Shown: positions 7,996 through 35,726 of the stretch, one piece after another
Numbering within the stretch: position 1 is the first letter of the stretch
How the letters are laid out: the number at the start of each line of letters is the position of its first letter
Assembly (NCBI GenBank): GCA_016222825.1
Contig: JACRQF010000015.1
Coordinates: 297,646-361,645, forward strand
Length of the DNA stretch: 64,000 bases
Reading direction: 5' to 3'
Source of the DNA: Verrucomicrobiota bacterium
Lineage (GTDB): Bacteria; Verrucomicrobiota; Verrucomicrobiia; CAIQCK01
Program-made: the position numbers and the translations under genes
The notes under the pieces: generated by a model
What the model was told of the DNA's origin: nothing
Seen by the model: only the letters and a program-made list of their open reading frames with translations
Database searches by the model: none

Positions 7996-8152
7996 GGTGA
8001 GGTGGCTCCTGGTTGGCTGTTGAATAGGTGCTTCACAGTTCTGCCGATGGTTCGACTTTCGCGCGCATCCTACGCCCCGGCCTGTGAGTGCCGCTACATG
8101 GAAGCCGACGGTTGCTGGTATTTTTCCGACGCGCCTTCGCGACCCTTGTCGT

Positions 8153-9640: not shown

Positions 9641-9714
9641 GGCGCCGAGGGTATCGGATTGCCATGTCCCGCGCCACAGATTCTTAGTTTGGTCTGGCGA
9701 GAACCCGCCGGGCG

Positions 9715-10572: not shown

Positions 10573-11838
10573 TCACGGGTTCGCGAACTGAACCGTTGAA
10601 CTGACCATTGCGCCGCGGTCATCGGTGAGGCCGATGAGCCAGGTGTTGGCGTCGGCGGGCGGGCGCGGTGCGATGATGACGCCGTCGCTGATCCTGGCCG
10701 GCTGGCTCTGCCACTTGCGCTTGGAGCGGAGGCCGGTGTCGGTGGTGTAGTGAAGAGCGGCTTCTTTGAGGGTTGTGACGGACTTCACGGGCAGGCGGAT
10801 GTGGTCGCCCTCGACGACGGGTTTGCCGGGAATCGGCAGAGGTTGTCCCCCGATGCAATGCGAGTCAATGAACAAGCCGATCTCCTTCGGTGCCCAGCCC
10901 GACGGATGCCCGTGAGGCATGTTGACCTGGATGCGCATCTGTTTCAGCCCCGGCACGAGATCGAAGCTCTTCTGGTAGCTGTCGAGCGGGTAATGGACGT
11001 CGCATGTGCCGTTCACGAACAGGATCGGCACGTGGCAGCGCGGCAACAGGCTGGAAGGGTCGTAGGTCTTAACCCAAAGCTCGCGGCGGTCGCCCAACTT
11101 GTCTATGGAAGGCTTCTGCACCGACTCGCCCTCGTGCAGGAAGCCGCAACCATACACGGGAACGGCCGCTTTGAAGCGGTCGTCGAGCGAGGCCACAAGG
11201 CACGTCGTGTAGCCGCCCCAACTGATGCCCGTGACCGCTGTGCGATCGGCGTTCACTTCGGCAAACGAGCGCAGCAGCGAGTGCGCGCGAATCACGGACG
11301 CCGCCGCATGGAACGGCCAGTCGTCGCTCGCGTCGCCGCCGATGGTGTCGAACTTCTCCGGATGGCCCTGGTTCGGTCCGCCGTTCGGCAAGCGTGTGCG
11401 CGTCTCTTTCTTTGCCGCTTGGTTCAGCACCGGCGCGCTGGTCTTGGAATCGTAGATTGGGTTGGCGGGCCGGCAGCCTCCCAGGTCCATCGCGATAGCC
11501 GCGTAGCCGCGCTGCGCCCAGAGCCAGGCCCATTCGACGAATGCCGTGCCGCCGCCGCCGTGGATGAGCACCACGCCGGGAAACTTCGTCTTGCCGTCGC
11601 TGGCCTTGCCCAATGTCCGTGGCGACGCATAAAACGCAAAGACTTCCGTTGCGTGGCCCTGATAGTTCTCACCGGCGTAGAACAGCGAATACACCGGCCC
11701 CGACTGGTCCGCCCAACGCATCGTGGGAACCGTCCGCTTGAGCGCGCTGAGGTTCCACGGCCCGACTTTTTCGTCCTCGGCGCGAACGGGGGATGTGACG
11801 GCGAGTATCGTGAGAAAGAGAGCGATGAGATGTTTCAT
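10573..11838 (-). CDS. secreted alpha/beta-hydrolase (esterase/peptidase S9-like)
   Basis: ORF 10573..12030; ATG at 11838 gives signal peptide [20 protein letters not shown]; nucleophile elbow GISWGG and HGGGG motif. Confidence 0.75.
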
Positions 11839-11842
11839 GTTC

Positions 11843-13438
11843 TTATTGGATGTAGAGGGCGCTGAAACGAACCTTCGTGTTTTGTTCGCCTTCAAACGAC
11901 ACTTTGAGGCGGATACGGCCCGGCAGACCGACGATGGCGGTCTGGCCGTTCCACAAGATCGGCGTGTGGAAGCCGCTCTGGCGGACGATGGCGGCGGCTT
12001 TGCCGGAGAAGCCGGGCAACGGACGTTCACGGTCGTCCAGCAGTTCGACCTTCAGGTTTGCCTGCGCGCCGAGTCCGTCGGCGTTCAGATAGAAGCGATG
12101 GGCGATACCAGCTTTTGTCGGAACGGCCGCGGTGACGAACTCGCTTGTGATGACCGGCAATTGATAATCGCCGCTGCCTTTGCCCGCCTCCTCCACCACC
12201 AAGTCGCCGAAGCGGTCGCGCGGGAGCGTGGCGATGCCCACGCCGCCGCGTTCGGGCGTGTCTTGCCAGTGCCGCGGGTCCCACGCACCGTAGTAGATAA
12301 AGGTCTCGTCGCCAATGTTCTCGAAGCCCTGACCTTGTAGCACCCCGCCTTGGTCCCATGCGCCGTCTTCGCCGCGCTTGAGGAAGGTCCACTCGTGAGC
12401 CGGTTCGCGGAAGCTCACGCCGTCGTTGCTGACCACGAACCCGAGGTCAATCGTCACGTCCTTCCATTCCTTCCCGCCATGCCAGATGCCATACAGGCCG
12501 AGCAGCACGTTGCCGCGGTTCCAGACGCTGATGGCTTCGTGCGTCTGCTCGCCCTCACGGCTCCGGCCCGGGCCGAGGTATGTGTGCTGCGGCTCGCGAA
12601 CAAACGCGACGCTGCTGGTCTGCGACCAGTTCACGAAATCCGGCGAACGATACGTCCGCGCCACACGGCCCTGGTAGGGACGCGTCGCGTTCATGGCGTT
12701 CTGGCCGCAGACGTAATACATGCCATCCCATTTATACAGGCCGCCGCACGGCTCAAAGTGAACCGCGGGCAGCACGAGGTCTTCCTTGCGCAACTCCGCG
12801 TTCTTCGGCTTGGCTGGCGTGAGCAGTTTCCATCGCAACCCATCTGCGCTCGCAAACGGGGCCAGCGTGCCGAGGCGTCTGCTGTTCCGAAAATAAACGT
12901 GCGTGGAAATCTTGTAGCGTCGCGCCGGGTCCGGATCGTCGGGGTCACTCAGCACCTTGAGGTTGACGAAGCCCAGCGGCGCGGGATCGGTCAGGATGAG
13001 GTTGTTGTTCTTGTTACCGCGATACTCCACGAGACCGAGATTGGGTTTGGTCCAGTGCAAACCGTCCCGGCTCTCCGCGTAGGCCGCGCGCCACCGCGCC
13101 GAGGCCACCTTGTTCTCGGTGTCATCGTCAAAGGCGACATACCACATGCGGAACTTACCGCCCTCGCGAATGACCGAGCCATAGAACTGCACCCCAAAGG
13201 CGTCCGGCGTGCCCGGCTTGCCGCGCTGCACGACGGGATTGGCCGGATGCCGCGTCGGCGACCGCATTTCCAGCCGGAGGTTCTGCGAAAAAGGAATCGC
13301 CACCGAATCAAACGCAAACAACGTCACGCCCGCCGTCTCGTCGAAGTCTGCGTCCGCCGCAGCCAGTTGGCCCGCCGCGAAAGTGGAAACGCAAATCACT
13401 CCGAGCAAGGAGAACATGAGGACGCTGGGCTTGTTCAT
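11843..13438 (-). CDS. secreted glycoside hydrolase-like beta-propeller protein (GH43/GH32-type fold, tentative)
   Basis: ORF 11843..13543; ATG at 13438 gives MNKPSVLMFSLLGVICVSTFAAG signal peptide; propeller-blade repeats. The conserved 5' block (see findings) precedes the ATG. Confidence 0.6.
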   Translation of the reverse strand: MNKPSVLMFSLLGVICVSTFAAGQLAAADADFDETAGVTLFAFDSVAIPFSQNLRLEMRSPTRHPANPVVQRGKPGTPDAFGVQFYGSVIREGGKFRMWYVAFDDDTENKVASARWRAAYAESRDGLHWTKPNLGLVEYRGNKNNNLILTDPAPLGFVNLKVLSDPDDPDPARRYKISTHVYFRNSRRLGTLAPFASADGLRWKLLTPAKPKNAELRKEDLVLPAVHFEPCGGLYKWDGMYYVCGQNAMNATRPYQGRVARTYRSPDFVNWSQTSSVAFVREPQHTYLGPGRSREGEQTHEAISVWNRGNVLLGLYGIWHGGKEWKDVTIDLGFVVSNDGVSFREPAHEWTFLKRGEDGAWDQGGVLQGQGFENIGDETFIYYGAWDPRHWQDTPERGGVGIATLPRDRFGDLVVEEAGKGSGDYQLPVITSEFVTAAVPTKAGIAHRFYLNADGLGAQANLKVELLDDRERPLPGFSGKAAAIVRQSGFHTPILWNGQTAIVGLPGRIRLKVSFEGEQNTKVRFSALYIQ

Positions 13439-13487
13439 GACAAACCGCAGCCTGCCACTGTGCGCCGTGCGCGCGCCACAAGAAAAA
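13431..13487 (-). repeat. copy A of a ~56-nt conserved 5' block (…TTTTCTTGTGGCGCGCG…GTGGCAGGCTGCGG…ATGAACAAG in gene sense)
   Basis: About 49 of 56 positions identical to 16998..17053 by manual alignment; spans the ATG of the downstream gene. Confidence 0.7.
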
Positions 13488-13755
13488 TCTCGTGCGTGTT
13501 TCAGGCAGCAGCCACTCTCCGCGGACCAGGAGAAACAACACATGACGAAACAGGAAGCCCGCTGGGCCGCGTCTCAAACAAATCGCATCTCAGCGCGCAA
13601 GCTCATGGGAGGACCAGAATGCGCGGGCCGCGGCAAATGGAGAGAGCATCTATGTGCCAGTTCCGGTGTTATCAACCGCAGTATCTTTCAATCGAATATC
13701 CGATGTGGCCCGGAAACGTTGCCAGATAAGATGAAACGAAAACGAGGACAAGACC

Positions 13756-17005: not shown

Positions 17006-17053
17006 GGCAAGCCGCAGCCTGCCACCATCCGCTGTCCGCGCGCCACAAGAAAA
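16998..17053 (-). repeat. copy B of the ~56-nt conserved 5' block
   Basis: See copy A; located at the start of the 15461..17005 gene. Confidence 0.7.
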
Positions 17054-17189
17054 CACCACGCATAGCTGTGTTGGCACGCCTTGGGATTTCACTCGGTTGA
17101 CGCAAAGAAGTTTCTCGTCTATCTATCGAAACACATCACCCTGTCTGCGGTGGTGGAGAACAACAATTTTACTGAATCGCACCCGCCTC

Positions 17190-19507: not shown

Positions 19508-20743
19508 TCACCGACCAAACAAATTCACGAGTTCCGTGATGGCGATCCAACCGAAGAGTGCCAGCGCGACCACGAGCGCAATGTTGCGTGTCGCGTCGTT
19601 GCGCAACGAACCGATCCAATCGCGGCGGTTGTTGAGGTAAAGCAGCAACGCGGCCAGGAACGGCATGAAGAACGCCCCGATGACCGTGAAGAGCACCACC
19701 ATCGCCACCGGTTTCTCGGCAAACAGCAGCACCAGCGGCGGGCCGGCGAGAAAGAGCAGGTAGCCGCGATAGGCGCGCGTGGTCTTCAGGTCCACATCGC
19801 CCACGGCCGTGGCGCGCGAGCGTTGCGCCATGAAGTCGGCGAAGAGATACGGCACGCCCTGCCACACCGCGAGCATCGCGCCAAACACCGCGCACCAGAA
19901 GCCGATGAGAAACGCCCAGCGCCCCGCCGGCCCCAGCAACGCCTCCAGCCGCGACGCGACTTCCAGCGCCATGCCGCTGCCCTGCGTGACCGCCGCGCTG
20001 CAGCCCGCCGCGACCACGGTCAGCGCGAGTGCGAAGACCAGCGTTACCGCATACGCCAGCAACAGGTCTGCGCGCACGGTGCGCTGGCAGCCGACGCCGC
20101 TCCATGCGTTCTCGCGAATCCAGTAGCCGTAGCAAAGCATCGTCATACTGCCGCCGATTCCGCCGAAGATGCCGAGCACGGATTTGCCCGAGGCCGGCGG
20201 CAACTCAGGCCACGCGAGATGGCGCAGCAGTTCCCCGACATGCGGTTTCACCAACACCGCGCAGACCGCCACCGTCAACACCATCACGCCGACGAGCGCC
20301 TTCATCACACGCTCGAAGAACGTAAACCCACCCGCGAGCGCAAGCGCCGCCGCCGCTACAGAATGGATGATGCCCCACACCCACACAGGCCATTGCGGGA
20401 ACAGCGTGTGCCCGGCGAGGCCGCAGGCGTTGGTGAGCGAGCCGCCGACGAAGAACGTCCACAGCAGCAGGTAGAGGAAGAAGTAACCGCTCACCCATCG
20501 CGGCAGCCGTTGCGCGCACGCCTCGATGATCGTGCTGCCGGTGGCGAGCTGCCAGCGGGCCACGCCTTCGTTGAGGGCGAACTTCAACGCCACGCAGGCC
20601 GCCAGCGCCCAAGCGAGCCGCGTGCCGAACGTCGCTCCCGTCACCGTCGCCGTGATGACATCCCCCGCGCCGATGCCCGCCGCCGCCACGACCAAGCCCG
20701 GCCCCAAGGCCTTGAGCGGTGAGAGGAGGGTCAAGCGCGGCAT
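19508..20743 (-). CDS. polytopic membrane transporter, Nramp/MntH-like (tentative)
   Basis: 411-aa ORF with ~11 hydrophobic segments; N-terminal LGPGLVVAAAGIGAGDV resembles the Nramp signature region. Confidence 0.65.
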   Translation of the reverse strand: MPRLTLLSPLKALGPGLVVAAAGIGAGDVITATVTGATFGTRLAWALAACVALKFALNEGVARWQLATGSTIIEACAQRLPRWVSGYFFLYLLLWTFFVGGSLTNACGLAGHTLFPQWPVWVWGIIHSVAAAALALAGGFTFFERVMKALVGVMVLTVAVCAVLVKPHVGELLRHLAWPELPPASGKSVLGIFGGIGGSMTMLCYGYWIRENAWSGVGCQRTVRADLLLAYAVTLVFALALTVVAAGCSAAVTQGSGMALEVASRLEALLGPAGRWAFLIGFWCAVFGAMLAVWQGVPYLFADFMAQRSRATAVGDVDLKTTRAYRGYLLFLAGPPLVLLFAEKPVAMVVLFTVIGAFFMPFLAALLLYLNNRRDWIGSLRNDATRNIALVVALALFGWIAITELVNLFGR

Positions 20744-20992
20744 ATGATTTGTGTTCCGGCGTGTTTCGCGGAGCGAAGCTCAAGCTAGAGCGAGTTTTAG
20801 TTTCCGCGGCATTGTAGGCCGTCGTCGCCGCCACACAAGGGCGAAGTCCCCGCCGCCGCGTTGACGGCCGGGTTTGTTCTTGACGTGACTGCGCGGCGGG
20901 CGAGAATGGCGCGCGTTGACGGCCTTGATGAAGGCTAGGACTTGGACAGGCTTCTCATCGGCCTTCGGAACGTCAACAGAAGGAGCGCGAAC

Positions 20993-21694
20993 ATGTATAT
21001 GGGTCTTGCGGCGGCAATTATTCTTCTCCTGCTCGTGCCGGGGCTTTTGGGATGGATCATTCCCCTCGCGTTTGGGATCGGGCGCATCCGGAAAAAGACA
21101 GGCGGAGTGGTGCTGACGGTTGTGGGCGGAGTGTGGGGGCTGCTCGCCCTCTGTTTTGGCGGCTTGGTCGCGTGGTCCATCACGATGGGATTTCGCGCCA
21201 TGCAGGTCGAGGACTTCGACCCGGCGAAATTCCAGGGCAAGACCGGCAAGATCACCCTGGCCCACAAGGCGGAATCGGAGCTTGTTTTGATGAGCTTCGG
21301 CGGCATGGACACCAAACGGATGCGGTTCAAAACCCTCGACGGCGTCTTCTCGGTCCCCGAAGGGAAGTATTTTCCATTTGAGTTTGCGGCATTCGCTCGC
21401 GATCCGGCGGGCGCGAAGTGGAAGGCTACCTGCCAACTGTTCGGCGGGGCGAAGGATGAACTGTCTGTCAGCGCGGAGTCGTCGCAGGAACTCGCGGCCG
21501 GCCCTCCGTTCACGGCCAAGGTGAAGGTTTCCAAGCAGTCAGGAAATGAGGTCGCCTTTGACCTGAAGATCACGGGTCAAGGCGGCCACAATTATGCTTT
21601 TCAACGGACTGACGCGGCAGACACGCCACCAGGGTTTGAGGTCGTCGGTCCGGATGGCAAAGTGGTCCTGAAAGACAAGTTCCACTTTGGGTGA
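20993..21694 (+). CDS. membrane-anchored hypothetical protein
   Basis: ORF 20942..21694; ATG at 20993 is preceded by AGGAG 8 nt upstream; two N-terminal hydrophobic helices, then a soluble domain. Confidence 0.65.
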   Translation: MYMGLAAAIILLLLVPGLLGWIIPLAFGIGRIRKKTGGVVLTVVGGVWGLLALCFGGLVAWSITMGFRAMQVEDFDPAKFQGKTGKITLAHKAESELVLMSFGGMDTKRMRFKTLDGVFSVPEGKYFPFEFAAFARDPAGAKWKATCQLFGGAKDELSVSAESSQELAAGPPFTAKVKVSKQSGNEVAFDLKITGQGGHNYAFQRTDAADTPPGFEVVGPDGKVVLKDKFHFG

Positions 21695-21707
21695 GGGGGC
21701 ACATGCC

Positions 21708-21726
21708 GGTATTCCGGGCGAATACC
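21708..21726. terminator. short hairpin (GGTATTC-CGGGC-GAATACC) between convergent genes
   Basis: 7-bp perfect inverted repeat 14 nt after the stop of the 20993..21694 gene; no clear U-tract, so terminator function is uncertain. Confidence 0.3.
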
Positions 21727-21842
21727 AGAGAACGTCAAGGGCACGTTGGTCGCGCGGCCTGTGCTGGAGAAGAATCCGTTTCAAGTGACGATTGAAGAAA
21801 CGCGCTGGACCCAATGAACAACGAGGGAAAGGACTAGACAAC

Positions 21843-24800
21843 CTATCGCGGCAACGACGCGGTCCGCCGCGAGGCGCGCAAGGTCCGCAATCCCACAGCC
21901 GCTTGGTCCGCCACGAGCACGGCGGGATGCTCGTCGAGCACGCGGGTAAGCAGAGCTTCGATTCCCGGCGCGTGGGTTTCGGTCAGGCCGGCCAGCGCTC
22001 CAGTTCGCAGCCAGATGTTGTCGCTGGCCAACAGACGGCGCACTTCGGGATGCTCGATGTTTCGGGCGAGCCGGGCGATGGCCTTGGCTGCCGGATAGCC
22101 CAGCCCCATTCCCAACGGCCCGTGCATGCCGGGGAAGTTCTCCGCTTGGGCGTATCGCACCAGCGCCGGCAGCGCATCGGCCACGCCGCGTTGCGCAAGG
22201 GCCTCGCACGTCCAGTAAAACCCAACCGTCTCGGCGAGCTTGGCGTAGGCATCCAGTTTCTTTAGCAGCAGCGGATTCAAATCGGCGTGCTTGCCCGATA
22301 GCAGTTCCCGCAATGCGAGATAATTGGCAAACGGGTAAGGTGAATCAAGCAACCGCTGCAACATCGGCGGCGCAGCATCAGTATAGCGCGCCGACAACTC
22401 AACGACCGCGCGGTCTAGAGGGTGAATGCCAGTGACCATCATCCGCGTCGCGCCGGGCGCCTGGTTGTTCCCATTGTTCAGGTTGCGGTAGTGGTCCTTC
22501 TTGAGACCTTCGGCAATGTCGCGTTCGAGCGACGCGAGGCTTGGCGCTCCCGGCGATGCTCGATCCTGTCGCGTTTCCACGACTGGCCCCGGCCACTTCA
22601 GACCGCGCGGCGGATACCACGCTTCGTAGGGCATCGGCGGGGGCAGCTTGATTTCCGGCACGCGATGGCCGGCGATGCGCTGGGTTTGTTGGATGGACCG
22701 CAGCGACTCCAAAGCCTGGCGTCGCACCACGGAGATCGGGTCGCGAGTGGCGATCTCGACCAGCAGGTCAATCGCGTCGGTCTTGCCGCGGGTCCCGAGT
22801 CCCACCGCGAGTCCGTAGCGCACGTCGCGGTAGCGCGTTATTGGATCGGCGAATGTCCGCAACTGCGCCACGTCCGCTGCGTGCCGGGCGAGCGCCATGA
22901 CGAGGTAGCACTTGTCGCGGAAGTTCGTTTCGAACCGCCCTTTGCCGATGGACATGATCTCCTTGAAATCATAGGGCTTGGCAGCTTCCGTCCGCAGCGC
23001 CGCGGCGGTCTTGGGACCGAAACCGAGCCGGTGAAGGAGCACGGCCCCGTCAATCCGCTCCCGCCAATTCTTGCTGGCCAGACAGGGCGCGACCAGTTCG
23101 TCAGGCACTTCCGATTGCTCGACGGCGAGACAGCCCAAGAGCCAGAGCGCCTGCTCCGGCTCGATCCGCTTCACCACCGGGAACGGGTGGCCGTGTTCGC
23201 TAAACGGGCGCTCCAGATTGATGCCCTCGCGAAGTTTCACATAGAGCGGATCCTGCTCCGGCGCGGCGTCACCACGCAGCACGTCGGCCAGCAACGCGAC
23301 TGCGTGCCGCCGCAGCCCCGCACGTTCCAACAAGAGCCGCACCAGTAACACACGTTGCGACTCGGGCCGGAGGCGGTCCTCGTAGCGCGGCTTCTCCAGA
23401 AATGTGCCGGGCAACAAACCGATCAACAGCGGCACGTCCTTCAGCACGGGTTTCGCGCCAGCCAGAACGAGGCCATGCAACCAGGCGTATTCTTCCGGCC
23501 GCGGCCCGTGCTGGAAGTAGCGAGCCAAGTAGCTGGGCCGCTTGGGAACCATCTCGTGGACCATCCGCCACAACGCCTCGATTGCCTGCGGTGTTCCAAT
23601 GCAACCCAGCGCGAGCGCTGCTTCGAACGCGTGATCTTGATGCTCCGGCCGCGACAGCCACGGAATCAGCAGCGGCACTGACGACGCATCGCGCATCCAG
23701 CCCGCCGCGCGAACCGCGCCCAACGCGGGCGGACGACCCGCCATGTCATTTCGCTTCCCTTCCACCGGATCGAATTTGACAGGCGGCGGCATGGGAGCCT
23801 GCAACGCCGTGCGCACGACCTGCCGGGCCGAATCCAGCGCGGCTGTTCCCAAGCGCCCGACCGCTTCAAACCACCGGTCGTTCAGTTCGTCACCCGCCTT
23901 CTGCCCGTGGCCGCACAATGCCGTGGGGCCTTTGCCAATCAGCTTCGCCAGTCCCTCCGCGCCGCCTACATCCGCAAGCAGCTTCGCATAGAACTTCACT
24001 CCATCATGGAGTGGTACGCAGGCCGTGATCGTCTCCAACGCAGCCGCCGCATGGAACCGAACCTGCCAGTCCGAGTCTCCGAGAGCTTTGCAGAGCGCAA
24101 GCGCCGTCTCCGGCGTGCCGAGCCGTGTCAGCGCCAGCGCGGCGGCGCGACGCACCTCCACCGTCTCGTCCGCGAGCAACCGGGCGATGGCGCCGCCGTC
24201 TTGTCGCGCTCCATCCTCCATCGTCATCAGCGTCTCGCAGCCGAGCCGCCGCAATTCCGGGTCCGCGTTGCCCAACCACGGCCGATAAATGGACTCCTCA
24301 CCCACGCGGGCTTGGCAACGATATTCCTCAAGTTCGTTGCGGCGATAGAGAATGTCGGTCACGTCAAGCCCGACCTGGACAGGCTCGCGCACGACAGGTG
24401 AGTGCAAAGCCGTGTGCGCAGGCGCGTCGTCCTGCGGCGCGTGGCAGCCTTGGCACGACTTGGTCTCGCCGGGTCGCGACGTGACGTAGCTCATCTCCAT
24501 CACGTTCTGCCGCGAGCCGACGGGCGCCGACGTGACAGGGTAGTTCCAGTCGAACGCAATCCGCCGCTGTGCCGCGTCCAGCGGTTCCACGAACAAGCCC
24601 GTGTCCGCCGGCGCTTCAAAATACGCCGAGCCATCCGGGAGCACGGGCACGATGCCGAGACTGCGCGTCGCAAGGCTCGTGTGGCTCGCAGAAGTCACTG
24701 CGGTCGGCAACGCTTCGATCACGCGGTAGTAACGGACCTTGCCCAGCACCGCCGCGACGTGTGGATTGTCGGAGCGGCGCGCGTTGAAGATCGCCATGCG

Positions 24801-26051
24801 ACAGCGGCCGGTGACCTGCACGAGGCTGGAATCTTTCGCAGAATCCGAAAACCCGCCCTTTGGCGCGAGCATCGTCGGTCGGGGGCGCTCCAGCAAGATA
24901 GGCCGCGCATCAAACTCGACCGTGTCTGGCCGATTGAACACTAGTTTCACCTCGCGCGTTTTCGGATCGGCCACGTAGATGCCCAGATCGCGCGCGCCCG
25001 GCTGCGTCGCCGAGAACAGGAACCGCCCGTCCGGCAGCGGATACGGCGTGGTTCTCGATCCCAGCGGCGAGAGATGAACGCGATGGGTCGCACCGCCGAG
25101 TTGAATCGTGGTCGCGCATGGGAAGACCGGCGAGAGCGCCGCCGTCGGAGTGAGCCCGCGCCGCACGTCGAGGATACACGGCCCCAATTCCGACAGCACC
25201 AGCAACGTCCCGTCGGGCATCTCACCCGCCTGCGCGTAGGCCAGGCCGGAGTGCCGCTCGCGGTTGTAGAACCGATAGCCGCCGATGCCGAAATAGTGGC
25301 TCTCGTCGGTGCCGTCGGGCCGGATGGTCATCAGGTAGTTCTCGTGCTTGTCGAGCGGCGGGACGTTCAGATGAAACGTGTCCCACAGCGTGAACAGAAT
25401 ACGCCCGTCCCGCAGCACCGTCGGGTCGAACACCGTGCCGGGATTGAACGTGAGTTGCTGCATCCCCTTCCCGTCGCTGTCCATGATCCAGAGCGTCTCC
25501 GTCCGCTCCTCGTGGTATTCATCGAGATAGCCATTGCGGTCGCTGACGAAGACGATCCGCCCGTCCGGCAGATACACTCCCGAAACGTCGTTGAACGGCC
25601 CGTCGGTCAACTGCACGAGGTTCAGCCCGTCCGCGCCGATCTCGTAGAGATGAAACCAATCCTCTCCGTCGCGCCGCATGCTGAACAGAATCCTGCGCCC
25701 GTCATAGGACGGCTCCGGGTCGAAGACTTCACCCTCCGTCAAATGGGTGATGCGCCGCAGTGTGCCGTCCGGCTGCGCGGGGATGAGCGTGTAGAGATTG
25801 CGTCCGGACCGCGAAGGCGTCGTCGTCCGCTCCAACGGATGCAAAGTGGTCCCGCGGTGGAAAATGTAACCTTCCTTCCAATGCGCCGTCCCCGGCCGCC
25901 CTTCCCACAAATGATGCGGTCCCAGAATATCGTCCGACACAAAGACGATCCCCGGCAGCCGATCATCCGCCCGGCCGCAGATCGCGCAGGATAGCAACGC
26001 CACGAGCGCGAGAAATGCCTCGAACATGGCTCGTCTGGACATCGGCGGCAT
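21843..26051 (-). CDS. large multidomain protein: N-terminal beta-propeller, single c-type haem site (CxxCH), C-terminal HEAT repeats (PVC-type)
   Basis: ORF 21843..26099 (1418 aa); signal peptide from ATG at 26051 (or 26042); propeller-like repeats (YLPDGRIVFVSDRNG, RDGRILFTLWD); CQGCH haem-binding motif; multiple HEAT-like repeats (…EVRRAAALALTRLGTPETALALCKALGDSDWQVRFHAAAAL…). Confidence 0.8.
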   Translation of the reverse strand: MPPMSRRAMFEAFLALVALLSCAICGRADDRLPGIVFVSDDILGPHHLWEGRPGTAHWKEGYIFHRGTTLHPLERTTTPSRSGRNLYTLIPAQPDGTLRRITHLTEGEVFDPEPSYDGRRILFSMRRDGEDWFHLYEIGADGLNLVQLTDGPFNDVSGVYLPDGRIVFVSDRNGYLDEYHEERTETLWIMDSDGKGMQQLTFNPGTVFDPTVLRDGRILFTLWDTFHLNVPPLDKHENYLMTIRPDGTDESHYFGIGGYRFYNRERHSGLAYAQAGEMPDGTLLVLSELGPCILDVRRGLTPTAALSPVFPCATTIQLGGATHRVHLSPLGSRTTPYPLPDGRFLFSATQPGARDLGIYVADPKTREVKLVFNRPDTVEFDARPILLERPRPTMLAPKGGFSDSAKDSSLVQVTGRCRMAIFNARRSDNPHVAAVLGKVRYYRVIEALPTAVTSASHTSLATRSLGIVPVLPDGSAYFEAPADTGLFVEPLDAAQRRIAFDWNYPVTSAPVGSRQNVMEMSYVTSRPGETKSCQGCHAPQDDAPAHTALHSPVVREPVQVGLDVTDILYRRNELEEYRCQARVGEESIYRPWLGNADPELRRLGCETLMTMEDGARQDGGAIARLLADETVEVRRAAALALTRLGTPETALALCKALGDSDWQVRFHAAAALETITACVPLHDGVKFYAKLLADVGGAEGLAKLIGKGPTALCGHGQKAGDELNDRWFEAVGRLGTAALDSARQVVRTALQAPMPPPVKFDPVEGKRNDMAGRPPALGAVRAAGWMRDASSVPLLIPWLSRPEHQDHAFEAALALGCIGTPQAIEALWRMVHEMVPKRPSYLARYFQHGPRPEEYAWLHGLVLAGAKPVLKDVPLLIGLLPGTFLEKPRYEDRLRPESQRVLLVRLLLERAGLRRHAVALLADVLRGDAAPEQDPLYVKLREGINLERPFSEHGHPFPVVKRIEPEQALWLLGCLAVEQSEVPDELVAPCLASKNWRERIDGAVLLHRLGFGPKTAAALRTEAAKPYDFKEIMSIGKGRFETNFRDKCYLVMALARHAADVAQLRTFADPITRYRDVRYGLAVGLGTRGKTDAIDLLVEIATRDPISVVRRQALESLRSIQQTQRIAGHRVPEIKLPPPMPYEAWYPPRGLKWPGPVVETRQDRASPGAPSLASLERDIAEGLKKDHYRNLNNGNNQAPGATRMMVTGIHPLDRAVVELSARYTDAAPPMLQRLLDSPYPFANYLALRELLSGKHADLNPLLLKKLDAYAKLAETVGFYWTCEALAQRGVADALPALVRYAQAENFPGMHGPLGMGLGYPAAKAIARLARNIEHPEVRRLLASDNIWLRTGALAGLTETHAPGIEALLTRVLDEHPAVLVADQAAVGLRTLRASRRTASLPR

Positions 26052-26095
26052 TGTCGCTGCCTCTCCGCAGCGTGCAAGCGCAAAACCCTCTCCGA

Positions 26096-28042
26096 TCATT
26101 CTGACGCGGCGCCGGTGAGCGCAACTTGCGTCTTCAGTTTCAGCCGCTGCACCGGCTGGTCAGTGCGCAGGACGACGCACGCGTGCTGCGTGATCGTGTT
26201 GGGCGCGAGCGTCGCGTCGGGCATGGACTCGATGCGAGCCGCAACCGCTTGGTCTGCCAAGTAGGTGACTGACACGTCGCCAGCCGTGATCTGGCCCGCG
26301 CTGGCGCGACTTGGCGCTTCCGCCGGCACGCCGAGATGCCAGCGGAACTGCACGATGTCGGGCTGCTTCAACTCGACCTCGTCTTCGATGGTCACGGAGG
26401 TTTGGCTCCATTCCACGCGCCGCTTCCATTTGACGACTGACTCGTAGCAGCCGGACACGTCCACGGAAGCCGCACCGCCCGATTCGTCCATCCGCTCGAC
26501 GGTGATCGGAGCCACGCGCCGCTCCTTCGTGAGCACTTGGCCCGCTTGCTTCAACACGGCAGGCGTGAGCTTCTCCAGGGCGGCGTCGCCGACCTGCAAC
26601 ACGTTATGGCCGGCGATGCTGCGCAAGTGCGTGGCGTTGTTCGGCACGGCGTAGTTGAGCGTGCCGGCCTCGATCAGCAACGCGCGCCGGCCGATGATGA
26701 AGTTCACATGGCCGCGGTCCATGTGATCGTGAAAATCCGTCGCATGGCCGCCGCGCAGCCAGAGGCCGGCCGCCGTGTCGTCGTCCCAACTGCTGCGCCA
26801 GTTCAGCCGCGCCGCCTTCGCGTAGTTCGCAAACAGCGGCGGCGCGCCCGCCCGCGAGGCCGGCATGTTCGCGGCGAGAATCGCGTCGAGCGTTTCGCCG
26901 AACCTGGCGCGCGTGCGCAGTCCCCACAGTGCGTGCGGACTGCCAGTCACGAAAGCTGCGGTCGCGAGAAGGTTCCGGTCGCGCGTGAGGTTTCCCCTCG
27001 AGCTGCCCGGCGCGTCGAACGCGTTGATCAGAAATCCGCCGGGCTGGAAATGATGGACAAGCCACGTCGGGAACTTCTGTAGGAATGGATGCGCCAGCAG
27101 CCGATTGTCACTTGTCCGCGCCGTCGCGCGCGCGATGGAGTAGAGGCTCTCCAGTGACAGACCGGAATAACGCAGTCCTTCGACGAACTCGCCATCGCTG
27201 CCTTGCACATCCATGGACCGGAGCAGCCGCGCAATCCCGGCCTCGCAGGTTTCGCGATGCCGGTCCACGCCGAGAAACAGGCAGGCTCGGACGAGAGCTT
27301 CGTTCGGCAGAATCCACTGATTGCTGTGCGCGGCCTCGCTGCGGACATACCACGGCCGCTTCGTCGCCCAATCCTTCTCCATCAAGGCCAGTTCGTCGGC
27401 CAGCCGCGATTCCAGTGCCGCGCGCAGGTCCGGCGAAATCGTGCCGGGCGGGAGCAGATCCACCGTGTCCGCAATCACCCGCACCAGCCAGCCGGTGCCG
27501 AGCCACGCGCCGTCGTCGCCCTTGTAGTGGGGCTTCGCATTGTTCAACGACCAGCCGCGCCGTTCCAGCGGAGACCACGCCGCCAACTCGGCGAGTTGCG
27601 CGCGGACGCGCTCGAACAACGCCGCATCGCCCGTCAGCGTGGCCGCCGCCGCAAGACGCGGAAGCTCGACCTTGAGCAAAGCGCCCGCATAGTTGTCGCC
27701 CTGCGAGAGGCAGAATATCTCCCACTCCTTGTCGGGAAGCGCCGACATCTGCGGTGGGCGCGTCTTGTATTTCAGCGTCACCCGCCACTTCCGCAGCTCC
27801 TCAAGCGTTTGCGGCCGGCGGAGCACCGGCTTGGCCGCGTCGTGTCTTGCCCCCGCGATGAGCTTCGCGCGCGCGCCCGCAAGCGCGGAATTGGTGGCAA
27901 CTGCCGAGAGAAGCTGTCTCAGCGGCGCGCGAGCAAGCTCATCGGGGGCGCGGTTGTCCGCTCTCGCGCATGAGCAGAACGCGACCGCGAGCGCCAGCAG
28001 CGAGGATGGCGCCCGCGGCAGATTCAGTCTGGGGATTGTCAT
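26096..28042 (-). CDS. heparinase II/III-like protein (polysaccharide lyase-like)
   Basis: ORF 26096..28096; ATG at 28042 gives signal peptide MTIPRLNLPRAPSSLLALAVAFCSCARA; C-terminal GGHATDFHDHMDRGHVNFI segment is typical of the heparinase II/III C-terminal domain. Confidence 0.75.
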   Translation of the reverse strand: MTIPRLNLPRAPSSLLALAVAFCSCARADNRAPDELARAPLRQLLSAVATNSALAGARAKLIAGARHDAAKPVLRRPQTLEELRKWRVTLKYKTRPPQMSALPDKEWEIFCLSQGDNYAGALLKVELPRLAAAATLTGDAALFERVRAQLAELAAWSPLERRGWSLNNAKPHYKGDDGAWLGTGWLVRVIADTVDLLPPGTISPDLRAALESRLADELALMEKDWATKRPWYVRSEAAHSNQWILPNEALVRACLFLGVDRHRETCEAGIARLLRSMDVQGSDGEFVEGLRYSGLSLESLYSIARATARTSDNRLLAHPFLQKFPTWLVHHFQPGGFLINAFDAPGSSRGNLTRDRNLLATAAFVTGSPHALWGLRTRARFGETLDAILAANMPASRAGAPPLFANYAKAARLNWRSSWDDDTAAGLWLRGGHATDFHDHMDRGHVNFIIGRRALLIEAGTLNYAVPNNATHLRSIAGHNVLQVGDAALEKLTPAVLKQAGQVLTKERRVAPITVERMDESGGAASVDVSGCYESVVKWKRRVEWSQTSVTIEDEVELKQPDIVQFRWHLGVPAEAPSRASAGQITAGDVSVTYLADQAVAARIESMPDATLAPNTITQHACVVLRTDQPVQRLKLKTQVALTGAASE

Positions 28043-28332
28043 TGTTCCATTCCGTCTGCGTCGCCGGCAGGGCTGCGTCAAGGGCAGGAGAACCACGCGG
28101 CCGGCCAGTTCGCAGCCGGCTTGTGAACGCGGGTTGTTGGTTCGACGGCCATCATGCGCGGCACTTTAAGGTTTCGCGGCCGGAAAGACAACACCAGCGG
28201 CATTGGAGGGCGGGTTCGCGCCTGGAACAAATCGCAAGCCAAGACAGGGGCCGTGCTGTTCCACGTCCTCGGCGGCAACGACGTGGCAGGGAATCCAAAG
28301 ACCGTTTGAGAAGCTTCAGGACGGCTCGCCCA

Positions 28333-29250
28333 TCAAGCCACCGCGGTCTTGTTTCTGACCGTGGCGGTTGACTGTTCGGCAACGGCGATGTTTGGCGAAC
28401 GGCGCGCTTCTGGCAGACTGTCGAACCCTCCGACAGCACCGCAGGACTGCGCCGGCGCGTCGGGCGCAGCGCCGACGTGCAACGTCGGGTTGGGCGCGTC
28501 CTGCGAGGTGACGTGGACACGGACGTGGCGCGCGTCGGCGTTGTGGAGGGCGGCGGTCACGGCGCGGTGGGCCAGTTCGGGGCGGTTGCACTCGCGGCTG
28601 AGATGGCCGAGGAAGATGTGCCGCAGGCCGCCGCTTGCGAGCTGTGTGACGACTTCGGCGGCGGCCTCGTTGGATAGATGGCCGAAGCGTGAGAGAATGC
28701 GCTGCTTCAACGACCACGGGCGGCTGGCGTCCTGCAACATGCGCGGGTCGTGGTTGGTCTCCAGCATGAGGACGTTGGCGGGCCGAACGCGTTCGAGCAC
28801 CAGGCGCGTGCAGTGGCCCAAGTCGGTCAGCACACCGACGTTGCCGCACTCGTGCCGCAGCAGGAAACCGACCGGATCGTGCGCGTCGTGCGGCACGGTG
28901 AAGCTCTCCACCAGCACGTCGCCCAGTTCGAACGCGTGGCCGGTCTGAAACACGCGCCATTGTTTCAACTCCGGCATCTCCTCCTGCACGGCCTCGGCGG
29001 TGAGGCGGTTGGCATAGACGGGAATCTCGTAACGTTTGCAGAGCACGGGCAGTCCTTGCGTGTGGTCGTGGTGCTCGTGCGTCAGCAACACCGCGCTCAC
29101 CTCTTCGAGCTTGCGTCCGATGCTGGCGAGCCGCATCGCGATCTGTTTGCCGCTGAAGCCGGCATCAATGAGCAGCCGCAGCCGTGGCGTCTCGATGAAC
29201 GCGCAGTTGCCGGCCGACCCGCTGCCGAGGATGGTGATCGTTGCTGCCAC
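28333..29250 (-). CDS. MBL-fold metallo-hydrolase
   Basis: ORF 28333..30018; MBL core begins at GTG 29250 (MAATITILGSGSAGNC…LLTHEHHDHTQG…, HxHxDH motif). An alternative ATG start at 29364 would add 38 residues and lies inside the palindromic element. Confidence 0.7.
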   Translation of the reverse strand: MAATITILGSGSAGNCAFIETPRLRLLIDAGFSGKQIAMRLASIGRKLEEVSAVLLTHEHHDHTQGLPVLCKRYEIPVYANRLTAEAVQEEMPELKQWRVFQTGHAFELGDVLVESFTVPHDAHDPVGFLLRHECGNVGVLTDLGHCTRLVLERVRPANVLMLETNHDPRMLQDASRPWSLKQRILSRFGHLSNEAAAEVVTQLASGGLRHIFLGHLSRECNRPELAHRAVTAALHNADARHVRVHVTSQDAPNPTLHVGAAPDAPAQSCGAVGGFDSLPEARRSPNIAVAEQSTATVRNKTAVA

Positions 29251-29337
29251 AGCCGTTGAGCGTAGCGAGCCGAAGCGGCGGTCACAAGGAGGAAAGTGGA
29301 GGCGGAAAGAAGGTGACGCTTTGATGACGGATTTTTG

Positions 29338-29373
29338 GGGCAAAATCGTGATTTTGCCCTCCATGATTTTGCC
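29338..29373. promoter_or_regulatory. operator-like element: palindrome GGGCAAAATC-GT-GATTTTGCCC plus a third direct half-site GATTTTGCC
   Basis: Read directly: 10-bp perfect arms at 29338-29347 and 29350-29359, third half-site at 29365-29373; lies between the DUF4339 gene stop (29382) and the MBL hydrolase gene. Confidence 0.45.
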
Positions 29374-29381
29374 GTTCCCCG

Positions 29382-29897
29382 TTACTTCCCTTGCAACCGC
29401 CTCAGATACTCGTCGAGGAGTTGTTGCTGCGCGGCGGGGTCCAGACTTGCGACAAGCCAGATGTAGATAATGCTCAGCACACCCAGCAACAGCCCGGCGA
29501 AACCGAGGATGATGCCGCAGATTGCCAGCGCCCGGCCACGCTCGCGGCGCTGGCGGATTTGCGAGAGTGAGACAAAGCCACAAATGACGCATGGGATGGC
29601 AAAGGGAAAACAGCACAGGCCCAATTGCGCCAGCACGAAGCTCCAGATCGCCTGCGCGTTCACCGGCGGCCCAACCACTGGCGGCGCGCCCGCTTGAAAC
29701 CACGCCGCGAAAGCCGCGTCCAACTCGCGTCGCTCTCCCGCCGCGCGCCACTGGCTGTCCGACGACGACCAGACCATCGTCGCCTTCGTCAGGCGCGCCT
29801 CGCGGGTCCATCGCTCCAACGTGGCGATGTCCACGGGGCCGTATTCCCGCTCGTCGCCGCCGCAGACGCGGTAGGAAATAGAGAAAGGTTCGGTCAT
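29382..29897 (-). CDS. DUF4339 (GYF-like) domain membrane protein, tandem paralog 3
   Basis: ORF 29382..29921; ATG at 29897 gives MTEPFSISYRVCGGDEREYGPVDIATLERW… then two or three TM helices. Start overlaps upstream gene stop (ATGA). Confidence 0.7.
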   Translation of the reverse strand: MTEPFSISYRVCGGDEREYGPVDIATLERWTREARLTKATMVWSSSDSQWRAAGERRELDAAFAAWFQAGAPPVVGPPVNAQAIWSFVLAQLGLCCFPFAIPCVICGFVSLSQIRQRRERGRALAICGIILGFAGLLLGVLSIIYIWLVASLDPAAQQQLLDEYLRRLQGK

Positions 29898-30385
29898 GTG
29901 CCGAGGCCCTCCACGCGGCACCTGAACACGGTCCAGAACAATCCGAGAAGCAGGCTAAGCACGAGGGAGAAGATGCCGATGGCGATGCCGGCGATGGCCA
30001 GCCCGCGTCCGCCTTCACCGCGCGTGTTGATCTGCGACAGCGAGATGGCGCCGAGGATAATCGCCGGGACGGAGAGGCAACCGCAGCAGTTCAACCCGAA
30101 GACCGCCAGCGACAGGCTCCAGACCGCGAGTGTGTTTGTGCGCGGCACTGCGAAGGAGAGCGGCGGGATGACGGCGGGCGGCAACGGGGCGATTCCGAGG
30201 GCTTGGGCCAGTTCAGGGATTTGCACGGCGGGCTGCCAGTTGCCGGTGCGCGAGTCCCACACCTTTGTCGGGGCGGCGACGCGGCGCTGGCGGATCCACT
30301 CTTGAAGCGTGGCGAGGTCCACCGGGCCGTATTCCTGACCGTCGCCGCCGATGATGCGGAAGGTAACTGGTGTCGCGTCTGTCAT
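29894..30385 (-). CDS. DUF4339 (GYF-like) domain membrane protein, tandem paralog 2
   Basis: 163-aa ORF: MTDATPVTFRIIGGDGQEYGPVDLATLQEWIRQRRVAAPTKVWDSRTGNWQPAVQIPEL then hydrophobic C-terminus. Confidence 0.7.
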   Translation of the reverse strand: MTDATPVTFRIIGGDGQEYGPVDLATLQEWIRQRRVAAPTKVWDSRTGNWQPAVQIPELAQALGIAPLPPAVIPPLSFAVPRTNTLAVWSLSLAVFGLNCCGCLSVPAIILGAISLSQINTRGEGGRGLAIAGIAIGIFSLVLSLLLGLFWTVFRCRVEGLGT

Positions 30386-30415
30386 GGTTTCTGGGATGGC
30401 TCGGCGCCAAGCACG

Positions 30416-31393: not shown

Positions 31394-31522
31394 GTGGGAC
31401 TCCTTGGTTGATTGATGGCCGACTATCTCCGTCTGGACGCAACCATTACCAGAAAGCCGCCGCCGCGTCGAGGGGCGAAAAACCGCTTGCGTTCGCGGCA
31501 AGCGCGGCTAGACTGCTGCGCA

Positions 31523-35601: not shown

Positions 35602-35726
35602 CCCTTTTCGTCGTGAATGACTGGCGGTAGTATCCGTCCGCCGTTTGCTTTTGAGAAGTCACCATGACATCGAGCAACCAATACTCCTTGCCGCAGTCGC
35701 GGACCGAAACCAACCCCTCACTCACC

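Follow-up and report, generated by a model that had tools for sequence, protein, structure and literature searches.

A HEAT-repeat protein with a predicted haem domain, related to hydrazine synthase alpha and encoded beside a heparinase-like gene in a Verrucomicrobiota genome

In a 64,000-nucleotide stretch of a Verrucomicrobiota genome (hereafter, the window), a gene for a secreted protein of about 1,400 amino acids adjoins a gene for a heparinase II/III-like protein. The preliminary description treated the two as a unit in the degradation of sulfated or acidic glycans. This raises the question of what the giant protein is, and whether its neighbor says anything about its role.

Gene arrangement and domain architecture

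Both genes lie on the minus strand. The heparinase-like gene encodes a secreted protein of 648 amino acids from its NCBI start, M19 (26096..28042; fullest extent of the ORF, 26096-28096). The longest ORF of the giant gene spans 21843-26099, but its likely start, preceded by GGAGAGG, is M17 (26051) or M20 (26042), which gives a gene at 21843..26051 with a product of 1,399-1,402 amino acids; NCBI uses M20 (MBI5687101.1, 1399 aa). The stop codon of the heparinase-like gene falls ~45-55 nt ahead of the likely giant start; measured against the longest giant ORF, there is an overlap of 4 nt. The adjacency and common strand noted earlier hold, but the order had been reversed: the heparinase-like gene is transcribed first and the giant gene directly downstream. 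A convergent plus-strand ORF of 250 amino acids (20942..21694), which is membrane-anchored as read from its translation and had no match in the family search, terminates this transcription unit; a 212-aa minus-strand ORF overlapping it (20935-21573) looks spurious. The packing of the two genes is operon-like here and at one other locus (L012). Co-expression is likely in both genomes, and a functional tie could exist.

The giant protein begins with a predicted Sec signal peptide (residues 20-44, 25968..26042, MSRRAMFEAFLALVALLSCAICGRA followed by DD), which was read by eye from the translation; attachment of c-type haem requires export. A six-bladed β-propeller of the PD40/TolB type follows (residues ~50-405, 24885..25952; Pfam PD40, 40.1 bits), and then a middle domain of the HZS_alpha type (residues ~430-600, 24300..24812), which passes the Pfam gathering threshold (PF18582, 37.5 bits against a cut-off of 26.6, residues 474-515) and carries the sole CxxCH motif of the protein, C549-Q-G-C-H553 (24441..24455). 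With this motif and what looks like an export signal, the protein would carry a covalently bound haem at this site. The remaining ~800 amino acids (residues ~602-1418, 21846..24296) constitute a HEAT/ARM-type α-solenoid with Pfam matches to HEAT_2 (87.3 bits, three stretches), HEAT and HEAT_PBS; a profile search of the PDB matched alphaRep and HEAT structures, alphaRep down to E = 1.6e-50. The solenoid includes conserved non-helical inserts (EKPRxEDRLRPESQR and NLERPFSEHGxPFP). In an AlphaFold2 model of 1,200 residues (pLDDT 85.9, pTM 0.90), residues ~558-1200 are predicted to be nearly all-helical, with ~30 helices and short strand inserts. All these elements are encoded on the minus strand, and they bear out the earlier reading of a secreted protein of ~1400 amino acids with a propeller, a single CxxCH motif and HEAT repeats.

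The same reading had described the architecture as typical of the Planctomycetes and Verrucomicrobia and pointed to the PVC haem-binding, membrane-bound dehydrogenase and HEAT family. The phyla are correct, and the three ingredients (propeller, haem c and HEAT) are those of that family. However, its models, which we take to be TIGR02603 and TIGR02604, are not among the eight NCBIfam families matched at E ≤ 0.01 (the library being assumed to include them), and the Pfam scan returned no PSCyt or PSD model (PSCyt1, PSCyt2, PSD1). Proteins of that family also differ in propeller type and haem domain from the PD40/TolB propeller and HZS_alpha domain found here. Membership is extremely improbable, and the likeness is an architectural resemblance built from analogous parts in the same phyla. 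TolB, the propeller protein of the Tol-Pal system, has neither a haem domain nor a HEAT region, and the score against the NCBIfam TolB equivalog is 44.7 for a cut-off of 343.

Relationship to hydrazine synthase alpha

Homology lies elsewhere: the N-terminal 600 amino acids of the giant protein are homologous to HzsA, the alpha subunit of anammox hydrazine synthase (kuste2861 of Kuenenia stuttgartiensis; PDB 5C2V, chain A). A profile of the family matched 5C2V_A at E = 1e-9, and at E = 9.8e-43 once relatives were added, in an alignment that is collinear over ~550 residues from the propeller through the CxxCH motif. The same chain is the top Foldseek match of the AlphaFold2 model (E = 2.5e-18, 609 columns, 17% identity), and the HZS_alpha model was matched by 45/45 of the distant relatives sampled. 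The motif PGETKSCQGCH of the giant protein aligns with PYHGRICSGCH of 5C2V_A, which is the haem alphaI site. With HzsA the protein shares a six-bladed N-terminal propeller followed by an HZS_alpha domain, the alphaI CxxCH and export, and it appears to be a relative of this subunit, a conserved periplasmic haem protein that is as yet uncharacterised.

In functional HzsA, Tyr591 is the proximal ligand of haem alphaI, and His587 and Cys303 bind zinc. An equivalent of Tyr591 is missing from the giant protein, in which H553 is followed by A-P-Q-D, and Cys303 aligns with Gly273 in the profile alignment. The C-terminal bis-His cytochrome c domain that holds haem alphaII is also absent, there being one CxxCH only, and the HEAT solenoid starts at its position. 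No hzsB or hzsC lies nearby: none of the other large ORFs in the 64-kb window (43 in all) has a CxxCH motif, and hence there is no hzsBC-like gene. The host, furthermore, is not an anammox bacterium.

These differences bear on the possibility that the protein is a hydrazine synthase, or an analogous nitrogen-cycle enzyme acting on NO or NH2OH, outside the anammox bacteria. The homology, which includes the haem alphaI site, is in its favor, and one paper suggests a broader HZS-like family with other substrates. Yet the giant-protein family is devoid of Tyr591, Cys303, the alphaII domain and any hzsBC neighbor, and a functional hydrazine synthase is rejected on these grounds. From the same losses, Hagglund et al. 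2025 (PMC12758564) argued that other HzsA homologues do not have an anammox function. We consider a nitrogen-cycle role of this kind very unlikely.

Close precedents are the non-anammox HzsA homologues of Planctomycetota and other phyla (clades I-IV, PMC12758564; hzs-like genes, PMC10732223), whose function is likewise uncharacterised and which, as the giant protein does, keep the alphaI CxxCH but lack Tyr591 and Cys303. They were chosen for adjoining fused hzsBC-like genes, often with FG-GAP, whereas the giant family is without such neighbors; clade I retains alphaII, where the giant family has a HEAT solenoid instead. HEAT repeat domains are not mentioned in either paper.

The HEAT solenoid and the conserved loops

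HEAT repeats are present in 24/32 HzsA-like relatives with a single CxxCH (N-terminal in 14, C-terminal in 10) and in 0/40 of those with several, in a sample chosen in part by a HEAT-containing query; none of the relatives sampled combines HEAT repeats with a second cytochrome domain. The multi-haem relatives (L030-L058) are 25-31% identical to the giant protein over residues ~120-580, which cover the propeller and the HZS_alpha domain, and their first CxxCH lies in the same motif, PGExxxCxGCH. They differ in having two to three CxxCH motifs, the second of which belongs to a cytochrome c domain and comes ~52 residues after the first, and in lacking HEAT repeats, while an N-terminal 3keto-disac_hyd or NPCBM domain is often present. 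Their second motif (VQPxLDxxCxxCH) aligns with the alphaII site of HzsA, the point at which the HEAT repeats of the giant family begin.

Exactly one CxxCH is found in 117/117 homologues of at least 1,200 amino acids among the best 120 matches, and neither an alignment of 30 sequences nor one of 96 shows any variation in the motif. By chance, 0.006 such motifs would be expected in the giant protein from its composition, and 0.6% of 20,000 shuffles contained one. The core observation of the preliminary description survives, because haem-domain and HEAT profiles match the protein and homologues keep the motif. The homologues come from metagenome-assembled genomes of Verrucomicrobiota, Pirellulales, Gemmatales and Planctomycetales, and giant proteins of Gemmatales, Pirellulales and Verrucomicrobiota are ~50% identical across 1,400 amino acids. 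The giant gene stands alone and is conserved in Planctomycetota and in part of the Verrucomicrobiota.

Four loops of the propeller are also invariant: E194-YHEERTE-201, K251-HE-253, R280-ERHS-284 and R340-xHLSP-345. The YHEE, DKHE and RERHS loops of the family coincide with low-pLDDT segments in an otherwise confident model, and RERHS aligns with the loop of HzsA that bears Cys303, the zinc ligand at haem alphaI.

Combining these findings, we propose, with a probability of about 0.55, that the giant protein is a periplasmic single-haem HzsA-like enzyme or ligand-binding protein in which a HEAT solenoid has taken the place of the alphaII domain, and that its gene came to lie beside the lyase gene by lineage-specific rearrangement. 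The HZS_alpha middle domain would hold one covalent haem, the counterpart of the catalytic haem alphaI of HzsA, probably with ordinary His ligation. The active site, be it of an enzyme or of a ligand-binding haem protein, would be formed at this haem by the invariant charged and His-containing propeller loops. The HEAT solenoid would be built into a single compact particle and not be a free-standing adaptor, and may cover the pocket, offer a docking site for a partner, or do both; the pTM value of the 1,200-residue model supports such compactness. In this arrangement the loops would touch the haem and the HEAT repeats the propeller. The protein is probably a haem-centered periplasmic enzyme. 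Catalysis itself is a conjecture.

A different view of the same architecture is that of a scaffold or envelope protein of the periplasm that has no catalytic activity and whose haem has a structural role or simply relays electrons. HEAT solenoids commonly serve in protein-protein interaction, a TolB-like propeller joined to one would bind partners, and there is neither a second redox center in the protein nor a redox partner gene nearby. The pattern of conservation, however, peaks at the charged and His-rich loops and at CxxCH, and not on the repeat surfaces; the module with the haem site has its homologue in a catalytic subunit; and the ~50% identity over the full length across orders and phyla suggests constraint on the whole molecule. 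We consider an inert scaffold unlikely.

The heparinase-like gene and its neighborhood

The remaining part of the proposed reading, a position beside the lyase gene acquired by rearrangement, competes with the idea that the giant protein assists the lyase, as redox helper or as scaffold, in degrading acidic or sulfated glycans, and that the two genes form a true operon unit. Tight packing on the same strand, export of both proteins and the gene order at L012, where the two genes are followed by a third that also belongs to the lyase's surroundings (c3, see below), all favor such a partnership. At one distant giant orthologue, a sulfatase gene lies immediately upstream and a BNR gene nearby. 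Furthermore, fusions with F5_F8_type_C, NPCBM, CBM_35, Laminin_G_3 or 3keto-disac_hyd domains occur in some distant HzsA-like relatives. Carbohydrate-binding-type domains in such relatives lend indirect support to a glycan-related role for the giant protein, but no such fusion is present in its own family.

Among the loci compared, however, the two genes are adjacent in the window and at L012 only. The lyase gene is not upstream of giant orthologues of 89% (L074) and 84% (L073) identity, nor of one of 75% identity or at ~20 more distant loci, and the giant gene is not beside lyase orthologues of 84%, 74%, 70%, 68% and 51% identity (the loci without the adjacency being L073, L074, L001, L071, L068, L069, L070, L072 and ~20 others). 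The 82 nearest neighbors at 23 more distant giant loci match 142 Pfam families, none of which occurs more than three times, so that no partner recurs. The taxonomic centers differ as well: Verrucomicrobiota for the lyase family and Planctomycetota for the giant family. The giant gene came to adjoin the heparinase-like gene through a recent accident of gene order and not as a conserved partner, and their proximity does not argue for a shared pathway; relatives just as close do not show the pairing proposed earlier, nor does any distant one. A partnership with the lyase is quite improbable.

The sulfatase (8153-9787), BNR (46608-48038), FG-GAP (48005-49357) and esterase genes that had been listed as glycan-related neighbors are present, but they are far off, with unrelated genes in between (Nramp, NAD-dependent dehydrogenase, hexapeptide transferase, his and trp genes). 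Sulfatase, BNR and GFO/IDH/MocA genes recur across the window and the fetched loci and are abundant in PVC genomes generally, and for this reason the proximity of sulfatase and BNR genes carries little weight.

A glycan-degradation context does apply to the lyase gene, if not to the giant protein. The identification of its product as heparinase II/III-like is upheld by Pfam (Hepar_II_III_C, 53.7 bits against a cut-off of 24, residues 453-602), and its 117 homologues are mostly from Verrucomicrobiota. It shares the Hepar_II_III_C domain with PL33 (8R73) and PL35 (8KHV) lyases, but the structure matches are very distant: residues 202-482 align weakly but collinearly with PL33 8r73_A (E = 1.7e-4), and the match to PL35 8khv_A has E = 0.3. 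The protein appears to be a distant relative of both.

The lyase's older partners are an esterase and the protein c3, which is secreted, has no Pfam match and has a GH32/GH43/GH130-type fold (five-bladed propeller and β-sandwich; 11843..13543, minus strand). The c3 gene directly follows the lyase gene at L069 and the giant gene at L012, in the order lyase, giant, c3. The proposed rearrangement would have inserted the giant gene into this older glycan cassette of lyase, GH-fold protein and esterase. The AXE1/DLH-type esterase (10573..12030, minus strand) corresponds, at 73% identity, to the third gene of the lyase-c3-esterase cassette of L069, and in the window c3 and the esterase now lie ~8 kb away.

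Domain architecture of the giant haem protein

The gene examined here, which we call the giant, occupies the minus strand and has a longest ORF of 1418 codons (21843–26099). It is located downstream of a heparinase II/III-like gene (the lyase) on the same strand, the longest ORF of which spans 26096–28096. NCBI starts the lyase at M19 (26096–28042, 648 aa) and the giant at M20 (MBI5687101.1, 1399 aa); the sequence GGAGAGG is found 8 nt 5′ of the M17 ATG of the latter. The stop end of the lyase and the longest giant ORF share 4 nt, and from the M17 and M20 starts the gap between the two genes is about 45–55 nt. The lyase matches Pfam Hepar_II_III_C at 53.7 bits (cut-off 24).

A signal peptide of the Sec type was recognised by eye in the translation of the giant, and Pfam assigns PD40, HZS_alpha, HEAT_2, HEAT, and HEAT_PBS domains to the protein. 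The HZS_alpha match (PF18582, 37.5 bits, cut-off 26.6) draws a parallel to HzsA, the α subunit of hydrazine synthase (PDB 5C2V chain A), which has two haems, αI and αII. A single CxxCH motif is present (C549-QG-C-H553), where 0.006 such motifs are expected from composition and 0.6% of shuffled sequences contain one. Among the best 120 matches to the giant, each of the 117 homologues that reach 1,200 aa has exactly one CxxCH, and the family consensus of the haem motif is [TV][KR][ST]CxGCHA. The preliminary description of this DNA, which had reported a giant protein with a single CxxCH next to a heparinase-like gene, is thus borne out by the two minus-strand ORFs, their Pfam domains, and the motif count. 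Its naming of the parts (propeller, haem, HEAT) and of the phyla also stands, but the domain family is HzsA-like. The architecture it had pointed to, of PVC-type haem-binding and membrane-bound-dehydrogenase proteins, finds no NCBIfam model at E<=0.01 and no Pfam PSCyt or PSD match in the giant, and membership of that family is rejected; a search of the literature on the family returned nothing useful.

The AlphaFold2 model of residues 45–1244, based on 96 sequences, is confident overall (pLDDT 85.9, pTM 0.90). It consists of a β-propeller, a mixed β domain around the CxxCH motif, and an α-solenoid that begins at about residue 602. In a 30-sequence alignment, the invariant positions fall in four propeller loops (E194-Y-H-E-E-R-T-E201, K251-H-E253, R280-E-R-H-S284, and R340-x-H-L-S-P345) and, in the middle domain, at S472-H473 and the CxxCH motif; most of these columns are still invariant at 96 sequences. 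Three of the conserved loops coincide with segments of pLDDT below 50 in the otherwise confident model (model residues 151–154, 199–207, and 230–240, or 195–198, 243–251, and 274–284 of the protein). Loops that are conserved and yet left unplaced are expected where their shape depends on a ligand or cofactor that the prediction does not include. Furthermore, the RERHS loop corresponds in HzsA to the Cys303 loop, which is beside haem αI. We therefore infer that the invariant loops of the giant line its haem pocket.

Non-helical inserts in the HEAT region (EKPRxEDRLRPESQR and NLERPFSEHGxPFP) are conserved, which, together with the pTM of 0.90, suggests that the giant forms one compact particle. 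A weak match of the HEAT region to 4d4z (E=0.0017) raised a di-iron, deoxyhypusine-hydroxylase-like site as a candidate. This was rejected, as the region has one conserved H-x-x-E (H823, E826) compared to the four histidines and two glutamates needed.

Relation to hydrazine synthase and the distribution of HEAT repeats

Hydrazine synthase is regarded as unique in its biochemistry, and its origin in evolution is debated. A profile of the giant family matches 5C2V_A at E=1e-9, and the addition of 12 more distant relatives brings this to E=9.8e-43 over three collinear stretches. At the haem αI site, the giant-family PGETKSCxGCH aligns with PYHGRICSGCH of HzsA. At the haem αII site, IQPILDAKCAMCH of HzsA aligns with the relatives’ second CxxCH, VQPxLDxxCxxCH. 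The αII domain is absent from the giant, and its HEAT region begins exactly there in the alignment with the relatives. Two ligands differ as well: the proximal ligand Tyr591 of HzsA is missing in the giant family, which has CHAPQ, and Cys303, which binds the HzsA zinc together with His587, corresponds to Gly273. Of the 43 large ORFs in the window, the giant is the only one with a CxxCH, which leaves no candidate for an hzsBC neighbour there. Because (i) Tyr591, (ii) Cys303, (iii) the αII domain, and (iv) hzsBC neighbours are all missing, the module of the giant, while homologous to HzsA, is not that of a hydrazine synthase. Similar losses led to the rejection of an anammox function for other HzsA homologues, none of which has an experimentally known function (Hagglund et al. 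2025, PMC12758564).

The giant belongs to a tightly conserved family, about 1,400 aa in length, that is centred on Planctomycetota and extends into Verrucomicrobiota; identity of about 50% is retained from one Planctomycetota order to another and into Verrucomicrobiota. A word-index search with the giant gave more than 2,500 matches. The best 120 of these are nearly all full-length (1,300–1,450 aa), and the sole name they bear is ‘HEAT repeat domain-containing protein’. Identity to the giant within this set is 75–100% in Verrucomicrobiota, 59–66% in Pirellulales and Thermoguttaceae, and 43–50% in Gemmatales and Planctomycetales. Clustering at 50% reduces the full-length family to three or four representatives. 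The 29 genome matches included no cultured host.

More distant HzsA-like proteins amount to 154 representatives at E<=1e-30; the relatives compared include proteins P0266–P0387 and those of genome loci L030–L058. All 45 relatives sampled from the exhaustive search contain HZS_alpha and 31 contain HEAT_2, a frequency inflated by the use of a HEAT-containing query to draw the sample. By phmmer, HEAT repeats are present in 24 of the 32 single-CxxCH proteins, at the N-terminus in 14 and at the C-terminus in 10, compared to none of the 13 multi-CxxCH proteins of the same sample (Fisher p=3e-6). A second set of 28 relatives was found by N-terminal peptide patterns. All but one of them have two or three CxxCH motifs (27/28; the remaining protein has none), and HEAT repeats are absent from all 28 by phmmer and from the five that were scanned with Pfam. 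With this set added, HEAT repeats occur in 0 of 40 multi-CxxCH proteins (p=1e-12). The mutual exclusivity of HEAT repeats and the second cytochrome domain, along with the two orientations of the HEAT fusion, goes beyond what the query bias explains. In the giant family, the HzsA module that bears the catalytic haem is retained, and a HEAT solenoid takes the place of the second haem domain.

Recent work has found distant HzsA homologues. HEAT repeats are not mentioned in Hagglund et al. 2025 (PMC12758564), and in a FEMS 2023 paper (PMC10732223) the word occurs only within ‘heat maps’. The literature on HZS-like proteins yielded no description of the giant family or of HEAT-fused HzsA homologues.

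Some HzsA-like relatives are fused to other domains, namely F5_F8_type_C (7/45), NPCBM, CBM_35, Laminin_G_3, Bac_rhamnosid_N, and 3keto-disac_hyd. Fusions of the carbohydrate-binding type are seen in L030 (4310–7318), L050 (8894–11788), P0356, and members of alignment A4, hinting that part of the HzsA-like superfamily may work on or at glycans.

Possible functions of the giant

The giant combines a single-haem HzsA-like module with a HEAT solenoid and is of a kind that is known but functionally uncharacterised. The analysis shows export, a propeller and a middle domain of the HzsA type, a single, strictly conserved haem c site, and HEAT repeats in place of αII. As the canonical CxxCH is kept and the tyrosine is absent, we infer with moderate confidence that its haem is His-ligated; a matching conclusion was reached for other HzsA homologues (Hagglund et al. 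2025, PMC12758564). The giant might be an enzyme or a ligand-binding haem protein with a pocket formed by the invariant loops, and the solenoid might serve as an integral shield or a docking surface. Haem αII of hydrazine synthase has no assigned function and is too far from the other hemes for efficient electron transfer, so that αI chemistry could persist once αII is replaced. A glycan-related role is possible given the carbohydrate-binding modules on relatives, as is a small nitrogen or oxygen compound as the substrate given the homology to HzsA.

A farther-reaching proposal, which we consider unlikely (roughly one chance in seven), is that the single-haem HEAT proteins constitute a distinct, widespread, and undescribed class of periplasmic haem enzymes of PVC bacteria. 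The HEAT repeats, fused N- or C-terminally, would stand in for the electron-transfer cytochrome domain, and perhaps for the β and γ partner subunits of hydrazine synthase, enclosing an αI-type pocket in which the chemistry would be new. Such chemistry could be of the N–O or N–N type in aerobic freshwater heterotrophs or, as the carbohydrate-binding modules on relatives hint, a haem-dependent oxidation of glycan-derived substrates. The exclusive HEAT-or-cytochrome pattern offers a concrete way to study the use of the HzsA module outside anammox, and a single polypeptide with one haem is a tractable target for biochemistry. The main value of the family is in the evolution of hydrazine synthase and in this clean biochemical target.

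Genomic context of the giant and lyase genes

In the genome of the window, a Verrucomicrobiota MAG with a G+C content of 61–66%, the next gene downstream of the giant is most likely a convergent plus-strand ORF (20942–21694) that encodes a 250-aa protein with an N-terminal membrane anchor. A 212-aa minus-strand ORF in the same region (20935–21573) looks spurious: its sequence is junk-like, it has no homologues, and it does not resemble the GATase-like gene found at that position in locus L071. Close packing and the convergent ORF downstream therefore make the lyase and the giant look like a two-gene transcription unit. Scans of 20500–30500 gave 3 promoter-like sites (1.2±1.2 in shuffled sequence) and 10 terminator-like sites (8.1±2.6), neither clearly above expectation.

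The pairing put forward in the preliminary description is, however, not conserved. In a tblastn search of 64 genome loci, L012 alone has the lyase beside a giant (87% identical), in the tightly packed order lyase–giant–c3 (c3 is the window ORF 11843–13543 on the minus strand). Equally close relatives lack the adjacency. In L074 (giant 89%), the 500 nt upstream of the giant show no similarity to the lyase, and after the giant come Ion_trans, a small ORF, Nramp (92%), and a sulfatase; in L073 (giant 84%), a carboxylesterase is upstream. Conversely, the lyase occurs without the giant in L071 (84%; GDSL–lyase–GATase–Nramp, the last 89%) and in L072, L068, L069, and L070 (74%, 70%, 68%, and 51%, respectively). 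None of five giant-orthologue loci with precomputed Pfam annotation has a Hepar_II_III neighbour, and the lyase family is centred on Verrucomicrobiota (for example, Opitutaceae, Coraliomargarita, and Lentimonas). The lyase–giant association is shallow.

No Pfam family recurs around the giant: the 82 ORFs closest to it in 23 loci match 142 families, none of them more than three times. All-against-all clustering of flanking ORFs detects only GFO/IDH/MocA-like (5 loci) and ceramidase-like (4–5 loci) proteins; both families recur in the window and are abundant in PVC genomes, and we thus judge this to be chance co-occurrence. Neutral-ceramidase-like paralogues (Ceramidase_alk) are found at up to 10 kb from the giant in 5–6 of about 26 loci (window 4052–5434, plus strand, and 15461–17092, minus strand; L001, L003, L010, L028, and L065), with a mutual identity of 23–27%.

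A deeper association is that of the lyase with c3. In L069, a 562-aa protein that shares 77% identity with c3 directly follows the lyase, and next comes an AXE1-type esterase with 73% identity to window ORF 10573–12030 (minus strand); among the neighbours of the heparinase-like gene, c3 is the conserved one. The secreted c3 proteins of 530–560 aa (also L069 10019–11707 and L012 14269–15912) have over 1,600 homologues. Without the self-match, the best 119 of these are 68–90% identical, and the named ones are all from Verrucomicrobiota. No Pfam domain and no match among PDB sequences was found for c3, and the sole NCBIfam indication was a weak one for GH130. Its AlphaFold2 model (pLDDT 77.7) displays a five-bladed propeller and a β-sandwich, and Foldseek matches it to GH32, GH130, and GH43 at E of about 2e-11; c3 probably represents an unclassified glycoside hydrolase or phosphorylase family. 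The nearest solved relatives of the lyase are PL33 (8R73, E=1.7e-4) and PL35 (8KHV, E=0.3).

The most economical reading of these orders is that the giant entered an older lyase–c3–esterase cassette. The cassette, as in L069, would have come first, with the giant then coming to lie inside it, as in L012. In the window, 8 kb of unrelated genes, including Nramp, a dehydrogenase, a metallo-β-lactamase-fold protein, and a hexapeptide transferase, separate lyase–giant from c3–esterase–AhpC–sulfatase; this separation would have arisen further in the window lineage, after the entry. The alternative is that the giant was lost from L069 and L071, both of which have the lyase; the entry reading accounts for the same orders more economically. 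The seeming ‘CAZyme operon’ context may therefore be a shallow rearrangement, which calls for caution in annotation and gives no ground for assigning the giant a role in glycan degradation.

The most stable landmark of the region is the Nramp transporter (window 19508–20743, minus strand; L071 11912–13147; L074 6725–7960), at 89–92% identity. Around it, the lyase, the giant, the GATase-like gene, the ion channel, and c3 are shuffled among close relatives, and the region is thus a rearrangement-prone spot.

On the other side of the lyase, three tandem minus-strand ORFs are similar to GYF_2 (30416–31501, 29894–30385, and 29382–29921). They are overlapped by a 561-aa metallo-β-lactamase ORF (28333–30018, minus strand), the Pfam match of which begins only at residue 268, so that its real start is probably much later. 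Elsewhere in the window, a 335-aa ORF (13756–14763, plus strand) weakly resembles PD40/TolB propellers, with an NCBIfam TolB match (E=5e-7) that falls well short of the cut-off. In tblastn, it also gives weak matches to HzsA-like relatives of L040 and L045, within their propeller region. It is a small propeller that stands alone.

At least seven GFO/IDH/MocA-type oxidoreductases are encoded in the window (regions 875–2341, 5453–6724, 6742–8352, 35664–38446, 44430–45833, and 53473–54831), at least two of them with TAT signals (5453–6724 and 6742–8352), along with xylose-isomerase-like TIM-barrel proteins (38933–39775 and 40697–41578). Such a periplasmic sugar-oxidoreductase repertoire is typical of PVC bacteria. 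Finally, the minus strand at 57314–63640 carries what looks like a Tad/type IV pilus-like cluster, with a T2SS/T4SS-type ATPase that has an N-terminal FHA domain (61913–63640), two T2SS-F-like membrane proteins (61020–61916 and 59129–60070), and a second FHA protein (57314–58744); the cluster also includes a PEGA-domain protein (55971–57437).
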